Assembly (NCBI GenBank): GCA_004557245.1
Contig: SFEL01000014.1
Location: 2,093-66,092, forward strand
DNA from: Clostridiales bacterium
GTDB taxonomy: Bacteria > Bacillota > Clostridia > Christensenellales > CAG-138
Length of the DNA: 64,000 bases
Direction: 5' to 3'
Each line of letters begins with the position of its first letter. Position 1 is the stretch's first letter. The position numbers were made by a program, and so were the translations under genes. Below, piece after piece: positions 22,217-54,608 of the stretch. Below the pieces are notes generated by a model. The model was given only the letters and a program-made list of their open reading frames with translations, was not told the origin of the DNA and made no database searches.

Positions 22217-22412
22217 AGTCTGTCAAAAAACCCCGGGGTTGATAAGGGGCCGCAGCCCCTTATTTTTAATCCGGCTCTGACGACATGTGCGTCAGAACGG
22301 ATGAAAACCTAGAGGTTTTCGCACCTTTCGGGTTTTGCCGCCCGGGAGCGAATGCGAGAGGCAAAACCCATAAAACTCGAAAAAGTGGCGTTTAGCCACT
22401 TTTTCGACAGTC
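22217..22412 (+). repeat. Multi-hairpin intergenic repeat element, copy 2 (subtype a, compact form)
   Basis: All five hairpin modules are present. The ends, AGTCTGTCAAAAAA...TTTTTCGACAGTC, form an imperfect terminal inverted repeat. Confidence 0.85.
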
Positions 22413-35232: not shown

Positions 35233-35296
35233 TCTTCTTTCTCTTTTCTTTTCATGAGAAAAGAAAAGCAGAAAGAAGCAAAGAGAAAAGAAAAGC
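35233..35296. repeat. Polypyrimidine/polypurine inverted + mirror repeat unit, copy 1
   Basis: TCTTCTTTCTCTTTTCTTTTC-atga-GAAAAGAAAAGCAGAAAGAAG-CAAAGAGAAAAGAAAAGC. A near-identical unit lies at 42341-42404. Confidence 0.85.
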
Positions 35297-36857: not shown

Positions 36858-37706
36858 TTATCTCTCCCCTCCTGTAAGATGGCAGAAGTGCTTTTCGTCG
36901 GAAAGCTTTTCCTCGGCCTTGTACATGCGGCTGCGCATGATGGCCTCGTCAAAGTCTACCAGATGGCCGTCAAAGTCCGGGCCGTCGACGCAGGCGAACT
37001 TGGTCTCGCCGTTTACGGTAAGGCGGCAGCCGCCGCACATGCCGGTGCCGTCTATCATTATGGTATTCATGGAGACGGTGGTCTTGATGCCGTATTCCCT
37101 GGTGAGGTTGCATACGGCGCGCATCATGGGCATAGGCCCAAGAACGAATACTTCGTCATAGCGCGTGCCGGCCTTGAGCTGCTCCTCCAGGGCGCTGGTA
37201 ACGAAGCCCTTGTGTCCGTTGGAGCCGTCGTCGGTCATTATGTAGAGATTGCTGCAGGCGTTTTTGAATTCCTCGGTGAGGATATACAGGCTGGTGCTGC
37301 GGAAGCCTATGAATGCGTCCACGTCAGCGCCTATGGCGTTAAGGGCCTTAGCCTGAGGGTAAGCTATGGCAACGCCCAGACCGCCCGCTACTACGGCAGC
37401 CTTTTTGCCCTTCAGGTGGTCAAATTCGCTGGCCTTGCCGAGAGGGCCTGCAAAGTCCATGAGGTAATCGCCCTCCTCCAGAGTGTCCAGACGCTTTGTG
37501 GTGGCGCCTACCTTCTGGAATATTACGGTTGCCGTACCCTTTTCGCGGTCGTAATCCGCGATGGTGAGGGGTATGCGCTCGCCCTGTTCGTCAATGCGCA
37601 GTACTATAAACTGGCCGGGCAGAGCCTTCCTTGCGACGTAGGGCGCTTCGACTTCTATCAAAGACACCGTGTCGTGCAGACGTTCTTTTCTTACTATACG
37701 GTACAT
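36858..37706 (-). CDS. nfnA: NfnA subunit (ferredoxin-NADP reductase / PyrK-like FAD + [2Fe-2S] protein)
   Basis: MYRIVRKERL..GQFIVLRIDEQGERIPLTIADYD resembles the NfnA N-terminus, and the C-terminal cluster is CGGC..C. The alternative upstream ATG at 37742 (ORF-track start) cannot be excluded. Confidence 0.8.
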   Translation of the reverse strand: MYRIVRKERLHDTVSLIEVEAPYVARKALPGQFIVLRIDEQGERIPLTIADYDREKGTATVIFQKVGATTKRLDTLEEGDYLMDFAGPLGKASEFDHLKGKKAAVVAGGLGVAIAYPQAKALNAIGADVDAFIGFRSTSLYILTEEFKNACSNLYIMTDDGSNGHKGFVTSALEEQLKAGTRYDEVFVLGPMPMMRAVCNLTREYGIKTTVSMNTIMIDGTGMCGGCRLTVNGETKFACVDGPDFDGHLVDFDEAIMRSRMYKAEEKLSDEKHFCHLTGGER

Positions 37707-37948
37707 AGGCTGAACATCGCTCCTTTTAGATTTTTTGGACATAAAAGTTGATAATATAATATCGCCAATATAATGGTAATATTATAATAACGCAGTATGG
37801 CTGTAAAGTCAAAGTAAAACGCTTATTTTAACGTGCAAACCTCCGGCAGCTGAGGTAAACGCCGGCACAATAATACCCCCGCAGTTTTGCTTTAATATAG
37901 GATAGCAGAAACCGCGGGGGGAGTTCAGATGGGGATAATAAAGAATTA

Positions 37949-39019
37949 TCAGGATTTTTTATCCTGTATGTAACGATAGTCGTAGCGGTAGTCCACCTTT
38001 ATATCCACGCCGAATATATCCTTCATAAGGCTCTTCAGCGCCCTGGTGTCCAGCACGTAGAAGGAGGCGCCGTTATACGCCGTGCCGCTTATGTACTTGC
38101 CCTTGAGCGTATGCCGCACAAGGCTTTCCCCCGGCACGAGATCCATGCCGAACACCGCCAGCGCCGCTATCTGCTCCGCCGTAAGGTCGGTATAGATGTA
38201 ATCCTTTACGCTGAGGTATAATTTCGGTATGGAGGTCAGCCTGCTGCCCTCTTTGAGCTGGGTGAATATGGCGAAGAGCATACGCTGCTGCCTGTCAGCC
38301 CTGTCCACATCGGTGCCGTAGCCCTTGCGGGCGCGGCAGTAGTCCAGCACCTGCTGTCCGTCCAGCCTTTGCACCCCTTTGTGCAGCACCCGGCCGTTGA
38401 GCTTTATCTCCCGGTCCACATCGTATTCCACGCCGCCCAGGGCGTTCACCACGGCCTTCAGCCCCTCCATGTTCACCCCTACATAGTGGGATATGGGCAC
38501 CCCCATGAGGTTTTCCACGGTCTTTATGGCGTATTCGAAGCCGTCGCCCTCGGCGCTGCCCCCCTTGGCAAAGGCTGCGTTTATCTTGTAATGCCCCTTT
38601 GTGTTGTATATCTTGGCCATGGTATCCCGGGGAATGGATATGAGGTGGGCGTTGCCCTGCTCAAAATCCACCGCCAGCAGCATCAGCACGTCGCTGCGGA
38701 AGTTGTTTTTGCTGTCCCGGTACATCACGCTGTCGCTGTCGTCCCGCTCCGGGCTCTGATCCCAGCCTACCAGCAGTATGTTTACCCTGCTGCGCATGAA
38801 ATCCGTATCGGCCTGCCGCAAAAGCTGCTCCTCGGGGCTGAGGGTAGGGGAAGGCAGGGGCTGCCCCGCCTGCAAAGGCGAGGGAGAGGGGGACGGCTCG
38901 GTAAAGGCGCGCATGGGGTCCCGGGCAATGCCGCTGTAAAACCTCAGCCCCAGGGCCACGCCGCCGCCCAGCAGCAGCAGCGCCCCGCACAGCAGAGCGT
39001 ATTTCAGCCTTTTTTTCAT
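37949..39019 (-). CDS. LCP family (LytR-CpsA-Psr) cell-envelope phosphotransferase
   Basis: N-terminal TM segment. LCP core NILLVGWD..SDVLMLLAVD..ISIPRD. Confidence 0.88.
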   Translation of the reverse strand: MKKRLKYALLCGALLLLGGGVALGLRFYSGIARDPMRAFTEPSPSPSPLQAGQPLPSPTLSPEEQLLRQADTDFMRSRVNILLVGWDQSPERDDSDSVMYRDSKNNFRSDVLMLLAVDFEQGNAHLISIPRDTMAKIYNTKGHYKINAAFAKGGSAEGDGFEYAIKTVENLMGVPISHYVGVNMEGLKAVVNALGGVEYDVDREIKLNGRVLHKGVQRLDGQQVLDYCRARKGYGTDVDRADRQQRMLFAIFTQLKEGSRLTSIPKLYLSVKDYIYTDLTAEQIAALAVFGMDLVPGESLVRHTLKGKYISGTAYNGASFYVLDTRALKSLMKDIFGVDIKVDYRYDYRYIQDKKS

Positions 39020-39110
39020 ATAATGAAGCCACCTCCCCTAAAAAGCGTCCTTACCTGTACAGTTTTCCTTAAAAGCGGGGAGGATTATTCATAAAAATAC
39101 CGCCCGCTCA

Positions 39111-39139
39111 TTGACATGAACGGGCGGCATGGGTATAAT
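39111..39139 (+). promoter_or_regulatory. Consensus sigma-A promoter (TTGACA-17 nt-TATAAT) for candidate antisense sRNA A
   Basis: TTGACA lies at 39111-39116 and TATAAT at 39134-39139. The -35 sits in the loop of the CCGCCCG/CGGGCGG hairpin. Confidence 0.6.
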
Positions 39140-39145
39140 GACAGT

Positions 39146-39233
39146 AGGGTAAGACCTAAACGGTCAGCCACATCACAGTATTAGTTTTCCAAAAGGAAAA
39201 ACCGCTCTGGTTGCAGCAGGGCGGTTATTTTTT
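39146..39233 (+). ncRNA. Candidate cis-antisense sRNA A (putative antitoxin RNA)
   Basis: It starts about 7 nt after the TATAAT and ends at the intrinsic terminator ACCGCTCTGG..CAGGGCGGTTATTTTTT. The U-tract is complementary to the last codons of ORF A. Confidence 0.5.
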
Positions 39234-39302
39234 CCTTATGGTGATAGTCACCGATTTTACCTCGCGCAAAAGCGCGAAAAGAATAACCAGTAATTTCATC
39301 AT
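39225..39302 (-). CDS. 25-aa hydrophobic/basic peptide MMKLLVILFALLREVKSVTITIRKK (putative type I toxin A)
   Basis: GGAGG SD 7 nt upstream, sequestered in the CACACTCTCC-GAAA-GGAGGTGTG hairpin. The frame is conserved in copy B despite 15 changed codons. Confidence 0.5.
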   Translation of the reverse strand: MMKLLVILFALLREVKSVTITIRKK

Positions 39303-39366
39303 AGGCCACACCTCCTTTCGGAGAGTGTGCTGACCGCCGCTTGCCCTATGCATTATACTTGAAAAT

Positions 39367-39396
39367 ATTATAGCGCAACTGTCTTAATTTGTCGAA
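39367..39396 (-). promoter_or_regulatory. Promoter for small ORF A (TCGACA-17 nt-TATAAT), overlapped by a TGTCGAA Spo0A-box-like heptamer
   Basis: On the minus strand the -35 lies at 39395-39390 and the -10 at 39372-39367. Plus-strand TGTCGAA lies at 39390-39396. Confidence 0.5.
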
Positions 39397-39417
39397 TAAA
39401 AAAATACCGCCCGCTCA

Positions 39418-39446
39418 TTGACATGAACGGGCAGCATGGGTATAAT
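39418..39446 (+). promoter_or_regulatory. Consensus sigma-A promoter (TTGACA-17 nt-TATAAT) for candidate antisense sRNA B
   Basis: TTGACA lies at 39418-39423 and TATAAT at 39441-39446. Confidence 0.6.
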
Positions 39447-39452
39447 AACAGT

Positions 39453-39540
39453 AGGGTAAGACCTAAACGGTCAGCCGTCCTTAAAGTTTTATTCCCTTAC
39501 GGGAACTACCGCTCTGATGTCAGCAGGGCGGTTATTTTTT
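39453..39540 (+). ncRNA. Candidate cis-antisense sRNA B (putative antitoxin RNA)
   Basis: Same architecture as sRNA A. The central hairpin has a different sequence but the same fold (TTCCC-ttac-GGGAA). Confidence 0.5.
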
Positions 39541-39609
39541 GCGAATGGTGATTGTCACCGACTTTATATCGCTTAACCAAGCAATAATGAAAGCCAATAA
39601 TTTCATCAT
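39532..39609 (-). CDS. 25-aa peptide MMKLLAFIIAWLSDIKSVTITIRKK (putative type I toxin B)
   Basis: Same length and frame as ORF A, with an identical KSVTITIRKK tail encoded by partly synonymous codons. The SD is hairpin-sequestered. Confidence 0.5.
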   Translation of the reverse strand: MMKLLAFIIAWLSDIKSVTITIRKK

Positions 39610-39673
39610 AAGCCACACCTCCTTTCGGATGGTGTGCTGACCGCCGCTTGCCCTGTGTATTATACTTGAAAAT

Positions 39674-39703
39674 ATTATAGCGCAACTGTCTTAATTTGTC
39701 GAA
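39674..39703 (-). promoter_or_regulatory. Promoter for small ORF B (TCGACA-17 nt-TATAAT) with an overlapping TGTCGAA heptamer
   Basis: On the minus strand the -35 lies at 39702-39697 and the -10 at 39679-39674. Confidence 0.5.
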
Positions 39704-39710
39704 TAAAAAA

Positions 39711-39898
39711 CTTCTTGACCCCCCACGGGGGTTGATAAGGGGTCGCAGCCCCTTATTTTCAATCCGGCTTTGGCGACATGCGCGTCAAAACGGATGAAAA
39801 GCTGCGCTTTTCCTTCCCTGCATCCTATGCTGGCCGCGCCGCAGGCGCAAGCAGAGGATGAAAAAACGTCGCAAAAGCGAAGTTTTCGCTTTTACGAA
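39711..39898 (+). repeat. Multi-hairpin intergenic repeat element, copy 3 (subtype b)
   Basis: It shares the 5' modules (GGTTGATAAGGGGTCGCAGCCCCTTAT; TTTGGCGACATGCGCGTCAAA) with all copies and the central module (TGCTGGCCGCGCCGCAGGCGCAAGCA) with copy 5. The 3' hairpin is a variant (CGCAAAAGCGAA-gttt-TCGCTTTTACG). Confidence 0.8.
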
Positions 39899-39911
39899 AG
39901 GCTACGCCTGA

Positions 39912-39967
39912 TTTGTTACAATTTCGTAACAAAAAACCCTTGACGTCCGTAACAATTGGTGGTAACA
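39912..39967 (+). promoter_or_regulatory. Promoter region of the surface-protein gene: 20-bp palindrome TTGTTAC-aatttc-GTAACAA, TTGACG-17 nt-TAACAT, and three GTAACA motifs
   Basis: The palindrome lies at 39912-39931, the -35 at 39939-39944 and the -10 at 39962-39967. A ~100-nt hairpin-rich 5' UTR follows. Confidence 0.45.
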
Positions 39968-40072
39968 TATAGGCGTGCTAAGCGGAAGGGCGCCGTAAAA
40001 GGCGCTTCGCCCGGGGGGAAACCCCCGATCACTTGCAAAACACAAAAAATATTTGAAAGGGATTTTAAAGCA

Positions 40073-41056
40073 ATGAAGAAGATTTTTGCAATCGCTCTGG
40101 CTCTGGTCATGGTTCTCTCCATGGCTTCCGCCTTTGCATCCGCTTGCGTAACCGGCCCCTTCAACTGGTCGGCTACTGCTACTGCTGCTAACTGCGGCAA
40201 GGGTAAGGTAGAGGTTGTTCCTTTTGTTAAGGTCAACGACGGCTGCGGCAACTATGTATGGCAGGAGAACAACTGCGCCGCCGCTATCAACTCCGAGAAC
40301 GTTTACTATGCCGTTAAGCTCACCGTTGAGCCCAAGGCTGATAGGGAATGGTGGACAGCCGCTTCTCTGAAGATTGAACTCAAGGGTCTGACTGGCAAAG
40401 CAGGTACTACCGGTACTTGGAATAACCTCTATGGTTCTGCCGGCATCAAATGGGACGAAGAGGATGACACTCTGGTATACTACCTCAAGAATGACGTTAG
40501 CACTTGGGTAAAGGAATCCGATTGGAAAGATATGTCCACTAAGGATCAGGCCGCTTACATCTTCACTGCAAAGGTGACCGATGCTGGTAAGGCTAAGGTT
40601 TGCGCTACCCTGAAGTCCAAGCTGGCCGCATACACCCAGGGCGTACTTGGCAACTACTATGTAGTGGCTAATACTGCCAACCCGAACAACATGACCATTG
40701 AAGTCTACTCCAAGAAGACTGATGGCACGAAGGATAAGCTTCTGGTGAAGTACACCATCAAGGACGAGAAGGTCACTGGTATCGATTGGTCCAATCAGTG
40801 CGGTGCTGACGATTACAACACCATCAAGGCCTACTTCAACCTCGAGATCGGTACTCCTGTAAGCGCAAAGGCTATCAACGACAACTTCGGTTGGGACAAC
40901 AAGGTCGAGTCCTGCTTCCAGTGGAGCAAGAACGGCGCTGCCATCACCAACCCCGAGTGCAAGATCGAGATCCCCAAGACCGGTGACGTATCCGTAGTTG
41001 CTTACGCTGTAATGGCTCTCGTAGCCGCTGCCGGCGCTATGGGTCTGAAGAAGTAA
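40073..41056 (+). CDS. Secreted, sortase-anchored cell-surface protein (IPKTG sorting signal), otherwise uncharacterized
   Basis: Signal peptide MKKIFAIALALVMVLSMASAFA. The C-terminus is IPKTGD, then a hydrophobic stretch VSVVAYAVMALVAAAGAMG, then LKK. No ATA Ile codons occur, unlike every neighbouring gene. Confidence 0.85.
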   Translation: MKKIFAIALALVMVLSMASAFASACVTGPFNWSATATAANCGKGKVEVVPFVKVNDGCGNYVWQENNCAAAINSENVYYAVKLTVEPKADREWWTAASLKIELKGLTGKAGTTGTWNNLYGSAGIKWDEEDDTLVYYLKNDVSTWVKESDWKDMSTKDQAAYIFTAKVTDAGKAKVCATLKSKLAAYTQGVLGNYYVVANTANPNNMTIEVYSKKTDGTKDKLLVKYTIKDEKVTGIDWSNQCGADDYNTIKAYFNLEIGTPVSAKAINDNFGWDNKVESCFQWSKNGAAITNPECKIEIPKTGDVSVVAYAVMALVAAAGAMGLKK

Positions 41057-41122
41057 TTAAGCTTCAAACCAGGGGGCGGCTCTGCCGCCCCTAAACTTGA
41101 CTTCCGCGGGCGTTAGCACAGT

Positions 41123-41146
41123 CCCCCCATGTGGGGGGCTTTTTTT
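41123..41146 (+). terminator. Strong intrinsic terminator (CCCCCCA-tgt-GGGGGG + CTTTTTTT)
   Basis: A G/C hairpin with a T7 run. It is preceded by a second hairpin, GGGGCGGC-tct-GCCGCCCC, at 41073-41091. Confidence 0.8.
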
Positions 41147-41282
41147 GGCTGAAAGCGCTCCAAAGGAACGGGGGCGGCTGGTATAAGCTTCGACCACAGA
41201 GGAAGTTCCTCCCCGGGGCACGGGGAGGAACTGACCCGCTGCGGCGGGCCCTCAGCACACCATCCGAAAGGGGGTGTGAAGT

Positions 41283-41390
41283 ATGATTGAGTTGATTATC
41301 ATTCTTTTTGTTGCGCTGAAGCGTGAAATAAAGTCTGATACCCGTACCGTCTGCGTATGTCAATGCGTGGACGGTATTTTTACGCATTAA
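41283..41390 (+). CDS. 35-aa variant small ORF C (MIELIIILFVALKREIKSDTRTVCVCQCVDGIFTH), possibly degenerate
   Basis: The N-terminal 18 aa are homologous to ORFs A and B. The 3' part reads through what is a terminator/antisense-promoter hairpin in the other copies. Confidence 0.3.
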   Translation: MIELIIILFVALKREIKSDTRTVCVCQCVDGIFTH

Positions 41391-41546
41391 AACAGCTTTC
41401 AGCCGTATAAGCTGCAAGCGCTCTAAAGGAATGGGACAAGCCCGTATAAGCTGCGACCACAGAGGAAGTTCCGGCGCGGGAGACGCGCCGGAACTGACCC
41501 GCCTGCGGCGGGCCCTCAGCACACCATCCGAAAGGGGGTGTGAAGT

Positions 41547-41606
41547 ATGATTGAGTTGATTATCATTCTTTTTGTTGCGCTGAAGCGTGAAATAAAGTCT
41601 GTATAA
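41547..41606 (+). CDS. 19-aa variant small ORF D (MIELIIILFVALKREIKSV)
   Basis: Same 5' UTR hairpin (CACACC..GGTGTG around AAAGGGGG) and N-terminus as ORF C. The stop lies directly at the antisense promoter. Confidence 0.35.
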   Translation: MIELIIILFVALKREIKSV

Positions 41607-41608
41607 GT

Positions 41609-41637
41609 ATTATACCCATTCCCCCTTTCCGTGTCAA
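41609..41637 (-). promoter_or_regulatory. Consensus antisense promoter (TTGACA-17 nt-TATAAT) firing back across small ORF D
   Basis: On the minus strand TTGACA lies at 41637-41632 and TATAAT at 41614-41609. The -35 is in the loop of the CCCCCT..AGGGGGG hairpin. The cognate site in unit C has TTGACA-17-TATCAG. Confidence 0.5.
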
Positions 41638-41812
41638 CGGATAGGGGGGATTTTCTTAGTATCGGCCACAGAGGAAGTTCCGTCTGCGGGCGGTATTTTT
41701 TCCGCAATCAGAAATATTTCACCCCCCGTTCACCCTTTTCTGTGAAAAACAGGGTATAATAGACACGCATGGCATATATATGCCGTTAAATTAAAAAGGT
41801 CAGGAGATAAGC

Positions 41813-42124
41813 ATGGAAATACAGCTTACAACAGAAAACTTCGCAAGTGTCACCAATACCGACAAGCCGGTGCTCATAGACTTCTGGGCAACATGGTGCG
41901 GCCCCTGCCGCATGATAGCCCCCGTCATAGAGGAGATAGCCCAGGAGCGGGCGGATATACTGGTCTGCAAGTGCAACGTTGACGAGGAGGTCCCGCTGGC
42001 GGCCCAGTTCGGCGTGAACGTAATACCTACCCTCGTGGTGCTGAAAAACGGCCGCGTAGCCGCCCGTACAGAGGGCCTCACCGGCAAGCAGAACATAATA
42101 AGGCTGGTGGAAAACGCCATATGA
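41813..42124 (+). CDS. trxA: Thioredoxin
   Basis: WCGPC active site. 103 aa. Confidence 0.95.
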   Translation: MEIQLTTENFASVTNTDKPVLIDFWATWCGPCRMIAPVIEEIAQERADILVCKCNVDEEVPLAAQFGVNVIPTLVVLKNGRVAARTEGLTGKQNIIRLVENAI

Positions 42125-42318
42125 AGATAAGGCTTAATGAGGACGAGCAGATAGTGAAGCTGATAAAGCAGGGCCTCAGCGAGCGCAACGGCCATTGCCC
42201 CTGCGTGCGGGAGATAAGCGACGACACAAAGTGCATGTGCAAGCAGTTCCGCCAGCAGATAGCCGACCCCGACTTTGAGGGGTACTGCCACTGCATGCTT
42301 TACTATAAGGAAAAATAG
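42121..42318 (+). CDS. Small Cys-rich protein resembling the ferredoxin:thioredoxin reductase catalytic domain
   Basis: CPC-x9-CMC-x15-CHCMLY; plant and cyanobacterial FTR-B has CPC..CPC..CHCMLF. The start overlaps the trxA stop (ATGA). Confidence 0.6.
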   Translation: MKIRLNEDEQIVKLIKQGLSERNGHCPCVREISDDTKCMCKQFRQQIADPDFEGYCHCMLYYKEK

Positions 42319-42340
42319 GGCGGAGAAATATAACGCCGTC

Positions 42341-42404
42341 CCTTCTTTCTCTTTTCTTTTCGGGCGAAAAGAAAAGCAGAAAGAAGCAAAGAGAAAAGAA
42401 AAGC
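42341..42404. repeat. Polypyrimidine/polypurine inverted + mirror repeat unit, copy 2
   Basis: CCTTCTTTCTCTTTTCTTTTC-gggc-GAAAAGAAAAGCAGAAAGAAG-CAAAGAGAAAAGAAAAGC. The arms are identical to those at 35233-35296; only the loop differs. Confidence 0.85.
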
Positions 42405-42427
42405 CCGACGATATTTGTAAATTTAAA

Positions 42428-42620
42428 GGCTGTGGGAAAAGTCCCCGGGGTTGATAAGGGGTCGCAACCCCTTATATTCAATCCGGCTCTGACGGCGTGT
42501 ACGTCAGAACGGATGAAAACCGGAGGTTTTCGTACTCTGCGGGTTTTGCCGCCCGGGAGCGAATGCGAGAGGCAAAACGCGAAAAGAACTCGGAAAAGTG
42601 GTCTTTAGCCACTTTTCCGA
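42428..42620 (+). repeat. Multi-hairpin intergenic repeat element, copy 4 (subtype a)
   Basis: All five hairpin modules are present and the central part is nearly identical to copy 2. Confidence 0.85.
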
Positions 42621-42718
42621 TATCATACTGCAAAAGCGCTTGCAAATATGCCGGGCCATGTATTATGCTTAGTGTAACGGTTTAACGGTAAATTAACACA
42701 AGGAGCGCTGAATACATA

Positions 42719-49078: not shown

Positions 49079-49154
49079 GGGAGCATAGCTCAGCTGGGAG
49101 AGCACTTGCCTTACAAGCAAGGGGTCACAGGTTCGAGCCCTGTTGCTCCCACCA
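49079..49154 (+). tRNA. tRNA-Val (anticodon UAC)
   Basis: GGGAGCATAGCTCAGCTGGGAGAGCAC..CTTACAA anticodon loop..GGTTCGAGCCCTGTTGCTCCCACCA. The cloverleaf folds and CCA is encoded. Confidence 0.92.
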
Positions 49155-49157
49155 TTT

Positions 49158-49234
49158 GGTCCGGTAGTTCAGTTGGTTAGAATGCCAGCCTGTCACGCTG
49201 GAGGTCAGGGGTTCGAGCCCCCTCCGGATCGCCA
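49158..49234 (+). tRNA. tRNA-Asp (anticodon GUC)
   Basis: GGTCCGGTAGTTCAGTTGGTTAGAAT..CTGTCAC loop..GGTTCGAGCCCCCTCCGGATCGCCA. Confidence 0.92.
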
Positions 49235-49239
49235 TTGAT

Positions 49240-49315
49240 GCCTCGGTAGCTCAGTTGGTAGAGCAAGGGACTGAAAATCCCTGTGTCGGTGGTTCAAGTC
49301 CACTCTGAGGCACCA
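49240..49315 (+). tRNA. tRNA-Phe (anticodon GAA)
   Basis: GCCTCGGTAGCTCAGTTGGTAGAGC..CTGAAAA loop..GGTTCAAGTCCACTCTGAGGCACCA. Confidence 0.92.
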
Positions 49316-49320
49316 ATCCT

Positions 49321-49396
49321 GCGGGAATAGCTCATTTGGTAGAGCGCCGCCTTGCCAAGGCGGAGGTGGCGGGTTCGAGCCCCGTTTCCCGCTCCA
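49321..49396 (+). tRNA. tRNA-Gly (anticodon GCC)
   Basis: GCGGGAATAGCTCATTTGGTAGAGC..TTGCCAA loop..GGTTCGAGCCCCGTTTCCCGCTCCA. Confidence 0.92.
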
Positions 49397-49400
49397 CATC

Positions 49401-49474
49401 GGCACCATAGCCAAGCGGTAAGGCAGAGGTCTGCAAAACCTTCATCCCCGGTTCGATTCCGGGTGGTGCCTCCA
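49401..49474 (+). tRNA. tRNA-Cys (anticodon GCA)
   Basis: GGCACCATAGCCAAGCGGTAAGGC..CTGCAAA loop..GGTTCGATTCCGGGTGGTGCCTCCA. Confidence 0.92.
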
Positions 49475-54352: not shown

Positions 54353-54537
54353 GCCTTGGGGTTGTTAAGGGGCCGCAGCCCCTTATGGCTTTATTCGGAT
54401 TTGGCGACATGTGCGGCAAATCCGCAAAAAGCGCTTGCGCAGCAAGGCTTTCCCTGCATTCGGTGCTGGCCGCGCAATAGGCGCAAGCACCGGATGAAAA
54501 AAACTCGAAAAAGTGGTTTTTAACCACTTTTTCGAAA
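54353..54537 (+). repeat. Multi-hairpin intergenic repeat element, copy 5 (subtype b)
   Basis: GGTTGTTAAGGGGCCGCAGCCCCTTAT..TTTGGCGACATGTGCGGCAAATCC..TGCTGGCCGCGCAATAGGCGCAAGCA..CGAAAAAGTGGTTTTTAACCACTTTTTCG. Confidence 0.8.
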
Positions 54538-54608
54538 GCTTTAACTGTGCCGCTTGCCATGGTATAATTTACTATAAGGTAAATTACAGCAAAGGAAAGG
54601 TAAGCGGC

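Follow-up and report, generated by a model that had tools for sequence, protein, structure and literature searches.

Two shortened units, probably decayed copies of a type I toxin-antitoxin-like module, at a strain-variable locus of an uncultured gut Clostridiales bacterium

A 64,000-nucleotide (nt) stretch of contig SFEL01000014.1 (hereafter the window), from a Clostridiales bacterium (GenBank assembly GCA_004557245.1), carries two adjacent plus-strand units with very small open reading frames (ORFs), here called unit C (41148-41410) and unit D (41411-~41660). Taken together, it is likely that positions 41148-41705 form the right arm of a cluster of type I toxin-antitoxin-like modules that varies between strains, and that units C and D are strain-specific, recently decayed copies of the long form of that module. 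Both units carry internal deletions relative to sister strains, and the short form was found nowhere else in the genomes and metagenomes searched. Judged from their sequence, both units are relics and most likely neither functions any longer; that the products act as toxin and antitoxin, that the promoters are active, and that function has been lost is what we infer from the anatomy described here. The short form appears to be a very recent deletion product of one strain and should not be counted as a new type I class.

The intact long module has a predicted toxin mRNA promoter (TAGACA/TCGACA-17-TATAAT) and a 5′ untranslated region (UTR) that ends in ..GCGGCGGTCAGCACAC, with the Shine-Dalgarno (SD) sequence buried in a hairpin. 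The ORF encodes a peptide of 24-27 amino acids (aa) whose N-terminus is hydrophobic and whose tail reads ..[ST][IV]T[IV]x[IVF][RK]xK. It is followed by a hairpin (T1) that serves as the terminator of a convergent small RNA (sRNA), by ~60 nt antisense to the sRNA body, and finally by a second hairpin with a U-run (T2), the toxin-strand terminator. The perfect convergent promoter of the sRNA overlaps T2, with its -35 in the loop and its -10 in the sequence just upstream, and the sRNA is complementary to the 3′ end of the toxin mRNA. This design fits a type I toxin-antitoxin module of the 3′-overlap kind, with putative toxin and antitoxin roles assigned from the sequence. The left-hand modules of the window are two such modules on the minus strand at 39085-39707.

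The preliminary description had reported two ~263-bp plus-strand units, and a repeat search bore this out, with repeats at a spacing of 263-264 nt. A 99-nt core is 100% identical between the units (41239-41337 and 41503-41601, spacing 264 nt), and over the 92 nt 5′ of this core identity falls to 80% (spacing 263 nt). There are three occurrences of the motif GACCACAGAGGAAGTTCC in the window, all in the region of the two units (41192; 41455; 41664 with 1 mismatch), against a chance expectation of 0.01. By repeat search and alignment, the UTR/SD core of both units is 85% complementary to 39605-39645 and is thus homologous to the left-hand minus-strand modules, as had been claimed; the claimed homology of the peptide N-terminus was likewise recovered, codons 1-18 of the unit C ORF being homologous to the long toxin. 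The features of both units are collected in Table 1.

Table 1. Features of units C and D and of the adjoining remnant (window coordinates; a slash marks a deletion junction)
Feature	Position	Strand	Basis or remark
Unit C, upstream part of recurrent element (..AAAGGAACGGGGGCGGCTGGTATAAGCTTC)	41148-41191	+	Segment also found 5′ of many hairpin elements on other contigs
Unit C, hairpin element: GACCACAGAGGAAGTTCC, 12-bp stem-loop 41204-41232, second 5-bp hairpin 41235-41248	41192-41252	+	Fold
Unit C, SD-sequestering hairpin (CACACC..AAAGGGGGTGTG)	41256-41278	+	Fold; core kept in all modules
Unit C, ORF of 35 codons	41283-41390	+	Codons 1-18 homologous to long toxin; 19-35 come from reading on through T2
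Unit C, deletion junction (..AAAGTCTG/ATACCC..)	41337-41338		115 nt lost relative to long form; alignment
Unit C, T2 terminator hairpin, 15 bp, and U-run	41344-41381	+	Fold
Spacer and upstream part of unit D element; two GTATAAGCTGC copies	41388-41454	+	Sequence, repeat search
Unit D, hairpin element: 12-bp stem-loop 41467-41495, second 6-bp hairpin 41498-41512; fused to UTR core	41455-41516	+	Fold
Unit D, SD-sequestering hairpin	41520-41542	+	Fold
Unit D, ORF of 19 codons (MIELIIILFVALKREIKSV) and TAA	41547-41606	+	Stop arises at the deletion junction (..tct gta/taa)
Unit D, deletion junction (..GTCTG[TA]TAAGTATT..)	41601-41604		105 nt lost relative to L097 and L028, 2-nt TA microhomology
Antisense (former antitoxin) promoter, TTGACA-17-TATAAT	41637-41609	-	12/12 match; identical to the L097 promoter
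Unit D, T2 terminator hairpin, 14 bp, weak U-run	41618-41657	+	Fold; -35 in loop
Remnant: GGCCACAGAGGAAGTTCC, 3′ half of a T2-type hairpin (CCGTCTGCGGGCGG), T-run	41664-41700	+	The "truncated third unit" of the preliminary description

Two contigs of sister strains show what was lost. Contig L102 (ERZ27309541, 43.5 kb), retrieved through an exact match to the 327-aa surface protein of the locus, is 100% identical to window positions 37073-41337 over 4,265 nt, including the 5′ hairpin and core of unit C. At the unit C breakpoint it continues as ..AAAGTCTG/TAACAATCACAGTCAGAAAAAAATAACCGCCCTGCTGCAATC, the added segment beginning TAACAATCACAGTCAGAAAAAAATAACCGCC.., and keeps the long form, with ..KSVTITVRKK and the sRNA terminator, as far as the contig reaches. 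Contig L097 carries the long counterpart of unit D (MIELIIILFVALKREIKSVTITVRKK), with the same T2, the same remnant, and the same thioredoxin flank; aligned with it, unit D differs by 1 substitution and by a gap of 105 nt flanked by TA microhomology. The loss of about 100 nt described earlier is therefore real, and alignment sets it at exactly 105 nt in unit D and 115 nt in unit C. The junction-spanning sequences of the short units are AAAGTCTGTATAAGTATTATACCC and AAAGTCTGATACCCGTACCG. The further 10 nt lost by unit C (TATAAGTATT) took with them most of the antisense -10.

What remains at the 3′ end differs between the units, much as had been described. In unit C, the -35 of the former antisense promoter survives in the T2 loop (TGTCAA, 41358-41363) and the -10 reads TATCAG (41335-41340, minus strand); the antisense -10 is TATAAT at 123 of 124 sites, unit C being the sole exception. 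The 35-codon ORF of this unit (41283-41390) does run through the terminator hairpin, and its stop codon (41388-41390) lies 7 nt past the terminator U-run, so that a terminated transcript would be left with no in-frame stop. The 19-codon ORF of unit D (41547-41606) abuts the minus-strand TTGACA-17-TATAAT promoter that faces it, as stated in the preliminary description: the promoter matches at 12/12 positions, only 2 nt separate its -10 from the stop codon, and transcription is predicted to start near 41602, within codon 19.

The short form was sought elsewhere with the core pattern CAGCACACNNNCCGAAAGGNGGTGTG, which is common to the long and short forms and thus does not bias the search toward either. 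One genome per species from 185,579 species was scanned, together with Joint Genome Institute (JGI) metagenomes. The species genomes yielded 6 stretches, from 2 metagenome-assembled genomes (MAGs) of uncultured Clostridia, and the JGI metagenomes yielded 89, from human and pig gut. We classified 135 core matches, of which 131 lay outside the window, part of them cut by contig ends. Every complete module outside the window had the sRNA body at +133 to +150 and the antisense promoter at +163 to +180 after the core; in the window units the promoter sits at +56 and +66 and the sRNA body is absent. A looser core recovered 138 ORFs, 136 of them 24-27 aa long with the conserved tail, and the only aberrant ones were those of units C and D. 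In the fetched loci the sRNA body accompanied 139 of 142 perfect antisense promoters, and the ~60 contigs syntenic with the locus all carried long modules. Beside the LytR-family gene at L014, L033, L067, L099, and L097, T2-type hairpins stand alone (ATTAAAAAAACCTCCCCTTTCCGTGTCAACGG..), with TGTCAA but lacking both the -10 and the sRNA body. These are further relics of module deletion in other strains, and show that deletional decay is common at this locus.

The preliminary description had offered two readings of the short units, decaying copies or a second subtype with full-overlap antisense control in the style of Ibs/Sib. The first is the one that held: all other complete modules are long, L102 is long at unit C, and L097 carries the long counterpart of unit D. 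The search of other genomes found only the long form, an outcome that the same description had named as speaking against its proposal. As a second subtype the short form fails on several counts, being conserved nowhere else, with no predicted antisense terminator, with the -10 of unit C lost, and with ORF ends that derive from deletion junctions. A working second subtype would require that the 19-aa peptide of unit D, perhaps also the 35-aa peptide of unit C, be toxic and be held in check by a full-overlap, Ibs/Sib-like antisense RNA from 41637-41609, which would also be perfectly complementary to the identical core of unit C. We consider this very unlikely. None of ~134 other modules is of the short form and the 100% identical sister contig L102 is long, against which stand a perfect minus-strand promoter and an intact SD, ATG, and hydrophobic N-terminus in a core that is 100% identical between the units. 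The N-terminus of one left-hand peptide is weakly Ibs-like (PF13956, E = 0.27), and a 19-aa Ibs toxin is reported to be active in Salmonella (bioRxiv 10.1101/2025.05.26.656083); however, neither Rfam nor Pfam gave a meaningful Sib/Ibs score, both ORF ends are accidents of the junctions, unit C is left without a -10, and neither an antisense terminator nor a sigma-70-like sense promoter is predicted.

The uniqueness of the short form also raises the question of an artefact of assembly or sequencing, such as a mis-join within the repeat array. The junctions themselves make this very unlikely, in our estimation as unlikely as a working second subtype: their homology is only 0-2 nt, at which a k-mer or overlap assembler would presumably need spanning reads to make the join, and there are two distinct junctions, each in a coherent unit with its own T2 type. 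The suspicion is fed by the fact that near-identical repeat arrays confuse assembly, that contigs carrying the identical thioredoxin mostly stop at the array, and that the junction-spanning ORFs are on no public contig on record. Exact look-ups returned none of five ORFs in or across the short units, namely two junction-spanning ORFs on the minus strand, the unit C ORF, and two on the plus strand over the 5′ fusion of unit D and over its T2 and the remnant.

The units are altered at their 5′ ends as well. Each begins with a recurrent element composed of ..GTATAAGCT.C-GACCACAGAGGAAGTTCC, a variable stem of 11-12 bp, GGAACTGACC, and a CCGCC-TGC-GGGCGG hairpin, of which the fetched loci contain 86 copies. 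As a rule, 169-180 nt (mostly 175-177) separate the element from the core downstream of it, and the canonical promoter occupies this interval. Eight copies, units C and D included, stand only 61-63 nt upstream of the core, and in unit C the hairpin element is joined directly to the UTR core. Alignment showed that this fused state lacks 114 nt holding the TAGACA-17-TATAAT toxin promoter and a second TATAAT. The same fused 5′ state occurs with intact long 3′ parts at L024, L074, L080, and L102, so the fusion is older than the short deletions and independent of them. In the preliminary description the long 5′ hairpin was an addition peculiar to the short units, with stems that differ yet remain paired. 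The second part stood, since the 12-bp stems of the two units differ in sequence with pairing kept; the first did not, for the hairpin adjoins many long modules. Across 17 variants of the element stem, compensatory changes were found at 3 pairs. Together with the 5-nt loop, these compensatory arm changes point to a nucleic-acid hairpin (an RNA, or one like the repetitive extragenic palindromic [REP] elements) rather than a protein-binding palindrome. For the same reasons the hairpin was set aside as a candidate recombinase site (GAAGTTCC..GGAACT), a sequence reminiscent of the Flp recombination target (FRT).

No plus-strand sigma-70-like promoter and no minus-strand terminator were predicted within 41100-41700. 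The upstream part of unit C contains TATAAG at 41182-41187 with TG in front, and a sigma-A promoter in the upstream element was considered and rejected: the only -10-like hexamer is this TATAAG, which lacks the -7 T, the -35 matches at 3/6 positions, the TG is present in unit C only, and the promoter scan did not report it. Downstream of unit D, the truncated third unit of the preliminary description exists as sequence at 41664-41700. It is a remnant that also stands 3′ of long modules (identical at L097, 1 nt different at L010), and GACCACAGAGGAAGTTCC is often found 3′ of the module T2 in other loci.

The decay of units C and D may be reconstructed as follows. Both right-hand modules have lost the 114-nt segment with the toxin promoter, and a loss of 105 nt (D) or 115 nt (C) took away the final 7 codons together with the sRNA terminator and the entire sRNA body. 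The leftover 18-19 codons reach, by accident, a stop made by the junction (D) or cross the T2 hairpin (C). Removal of an antitoxin would presumably be tolerated only if the toxin were disabled, and deletion of tail and sRNA together would do both; on this account the units offer a clean case of module death, with toxin tail and antitoxin lost in one step, as addiction logic permits. A single deletion, followed by gene conversion of core and junction, is suggested by a left breakpoint in common and a 100% identical core, next to flanks that have diverged and T2 hairpins that differ in type; the 10 nt that unit C lost in addition fall outside the gene-conversion account. Recent tandem duplication of a 263-bp unit was also considered. 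With flanks 80% identical, T2 types that differ, and a core at 100%, gene conversion fits better.

The antisense promoter of unit D, which now abuts the ORF, probably still fires. Its sequence equals that of working copies through the first 7 downstream bases, and continued initiation near 41602 is therefore probable; with no predicted minus-strand terminator ahead of the surface-protein gene, the product would be an undefined read-through, an unterminated transcript antisense to units D and C. Such a transcript would run into the 3′ end of the surface-protein gene (40073-41056), and it could be imagined that it has been co-opted to modulate this gene. The lack of a predicted minus-strand terminator between 41602 and the 3′ end of the gene would permit this, and the locus is a hot spot of variation around the surface gene, but the argument is one of geometry alone, and in long-form strains the same promoter ends at its own terminator. 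With the arrangement confined to this genome, selection on it cannot be seen, and we hold co-option to be scarcely probable. The same low probability applies to the idea that unit D is a newborn functional full-overlap pair, one deletion having turned a 3′-overlap module into an Ibs/Sib-like one whose antisense RNA also covers the core of unit C. Were it true, an evolutionary switch between two type I architectures would have been caught in the act.

Several points weigh against the interpretation of units C and D as dead copies. In several strains, long modules share the promoter-less 5′ fusion and are intact in every other respect, so the upstream element might supply transcription that is invisible to a consensus scan. 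The identical 99-nt core, with its SD and ATG, and the shared left breakpoint need conversion or duplication after the deletion, or could hint at selection. The antisense promoter of unit D is perfect, and the first 7 bases on its transcribed side are unchanged. Peptides of 19 aa can be toxic, as is reported for IbsA (bioRxiv 10.1101/2025.05.26.656083), so the peptides of the units may still be toxic. Finally, few contigs of the same strain resolve the array, and most assemblies break there.

Type I toxin-antitoxin systems have been defined by a small (<60 aa) hydrophobic peptide with a charged C-terminus, a cis antisense sRNA with its own promoter and terminator, and toxicity that is neutralised by the sRNA (PMC6563280). 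A hydrophobic peptide with a charged C-terminus is encoded by the long form (136 ORFs) and not by units C and D, in which the tail is deleted: the unit D peptide ends ..KSV and that of unit C runs into unrelated Cys-rich read-through. An antisense sRNA with promoter and terminator is predicted for the long form; in the units its body and terminator are deleted, unit D keeping the promoter only and unit C no -10. Both units do have the long-family core (CAGCACAC-NNN-CCGAAAGG-N-GGTGTG) with ATG and homologous N-terminal coding sequence, and the core of unit D equals that of the L097 long module but for 1 nt. The ..TITxRKK codons, the T1 terminator, and the sRNA body (GGCTGACCG..) are absent from both, which makes units C and D truncated derivatives of the long family and not intact members.

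Comparison with families on record gave little. The best score against PF13956 (Ibs_toxin) was 11.7 bits (E = 0.27, cut-off 27), for one left-hand peptide only; the long counterpart of units C and D and the 35-aa ORF of unit C had no match (the 19-mer of unit D, at <20 residues, was outside the set). At E <= 10 over 38900-42700, Rfam gave no Sib match; RF01412 (BsrG/SR4) scored a weak 24.6 and 20.7 bits for the two left-hand modules, against a gathering threshold of 55, and did not match units C and D. At the Rfam gathering thresholds, the window contained tRNAs only. Nothing significant was found in Pfam and NCBIfam for nine peptides, in a BLAST search of phages and plasmids and a scan of viral contigs no match was found, and a full-text literature search for the peptide tail motifs turned up no relevant paper. 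No minus-strand terminator for an antisense RNA from unit D was predicted within 41100-41600.

Among known systems, the long module most resembles BsrG/SR4 and TxpA/RatA of Bacillus subtilis, in which the sRNA is transcribed toward the toxin gene and overlaps the toxin mRNA at its 3′ end, the SD lies in a hairpin, and the small peptide has a hydrophobic N-terminus and a basic C-terminus. SR4 targets the 3′ end of bsrG mRNA and also tightens the SD helix (PMC3834814). The long-module peptides are shorter than BsrG (24-27 aa compared with 38 aa) and have no Pfam or NCBIfam similarity, and the locus is chromosomal rather than prophage-borne. It is precisely the overlapping part that is missing from units C and D, which are thus no longer of the BsrG/SR4 architecture. 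Unit D is instead reminiscent of Ibs/Sib of Escherichia coli (toxin of 18-19 aa), with a 19-aa hydrophobic ORF and a facing promoter that would give full antisense overlap of ORF and SD; Ibs/Sib, too, is present as repeated copies (PMC4147584, PMC2887945). In contrast to Ibs/Sib, unit D lacks sequence membership, its antisense RNA would have no defined 3′ end, and its arrangement is an unconserved, one-off product of deletion.

The predicted fold of the long toxin mRNA (39092-39345, minus strand) pairs the 5′ UTR segment CGGUCAGC with the 3′ segment GCUGACCG, in the region antisense to the sRNA. This resembles the 5′-3′ long-distance lock of hok/Sok and AapA1/IsoA1. In the long module both partner segments are invariant, so covariation lends no support to the pairing; in units C and D the 3′ partner is gone and the 5′ partner altered (CCCTCAGC). 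The sRNA shares CGGUCAGCC with the toxin 5′ UTR. Copies of hok in E. coli K-12 are reportedly inactivated; like units C and D, they would be chromosomal multicopy type I modules disabled by rearrangement with sister copies intact. The route differs, being internal deletion of toxin tail, antitoxin, and promoter segment in units C and D and not insertion of an insertion sequence (IS).

The parent family is in our view of more interest than the short units. It is absent from Rfam, Pfam, and NCBIfam, sits at a hypervariable surface-gene locus of uncultured gut Clostridia, and has apparently not been described so far. T2 shows compensatory double changes at 11/15 pairs among 19 distinct variants, with TGTCAA invariant, and is under structural selection. 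Terminator and promoter overlap unusually tightly in T2, at 39097-39130, 39404-39437, 41344-41377, and 41618-41651 and likewise in every long module. The length of the predicted sRNA is 85-98 nt (43 variants); its 5′ stem-loop (..GACCUAAACGGUC..) and its terminator are conserved, while the middle varies. The Lys-Lys-stop codons AAA-AAA-TAA (AAAAAATAA) are the complement of the sRNA terminator U-run (39219-39236, 39526-39541, both strands), so the same bases encode the basic tail of the peptide and sRNA termination. Among long ORFs, differences at codon positions 1, 2, and 3 numbered 306, 150, and 523, a pattern by which the ORF behaves as coding sequence. A distant branch of the family (L003, L004, and L006, from MAG CAYMPG01) has another peptide (MQRIIEMIIFALLRHISSITINFRKQK), another toxin promoter region, and another T2 stem. 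It keeps the core, the sRNA 5′ stem-loop, and the layout, so that the long design is conserved beyond the species of the window.

The locus (window 37949-42124; loci L002, L013-L100) runs in the order LytR-family gene, 1-2 modules, 327-aa surface-protein gene, 1-2 modules, and thioredoxin (trx), and the modules form inverted repeats flanking the surface-protein gene. Module number, peptide type, and orientation all vary from strain to strain. The surface gene is missing from L097, L042, L043, and L068, and in L046 and L073 it is flipped with respect to its flanks. In the window it lies on the plus strand and encodes a signal-peptide-like N-terminal sequence (MKKIFAIALALVMVLSMASAFA) and a C-terminus (IPKTGD, a hydrophobic stretch, and KK) that resembles a sortase sorting signal; the protein has no Pfam family on record. 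Its middle is strongly divergent across strains, with ends 80-97% conserved.

Other repeats are present in the window. A dispersed intergenic family containing ..GGTTGATAAGGGGNCGCAGCCCCTTAT.. occurs at 13051-13179, 22217-22345, 39710-39838, and 42429-42557, with further copies of dispersed intergenic repeats at 13181-13229, 13242-13295, 22359-22412, and 54450-54540. In the copy at 13181-13229 the repeat is fused to a hairpin and GACCCGCTGCGGCGGGCC, an arrangement that resembles, in inverted orientation, the 5′ element of units C and D. These repeats look mosaic, similar to REP elements or bacterial interspersed mosaic elements (BIMEs). A 63-nt AG/CT-rich palindromic repeat (CTTCTTTCTCTTTTCTTTTC..GAAAAGAAAAGCAGAAAGAAG..) is found at 35234-35296 and 42342-42404, 95% identical and 7.1 kb apart. 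Five tRNA genes are clustered at 49079-49471 on the plus strand, and an isolated one lies at 10973-11045 on the minus strand.

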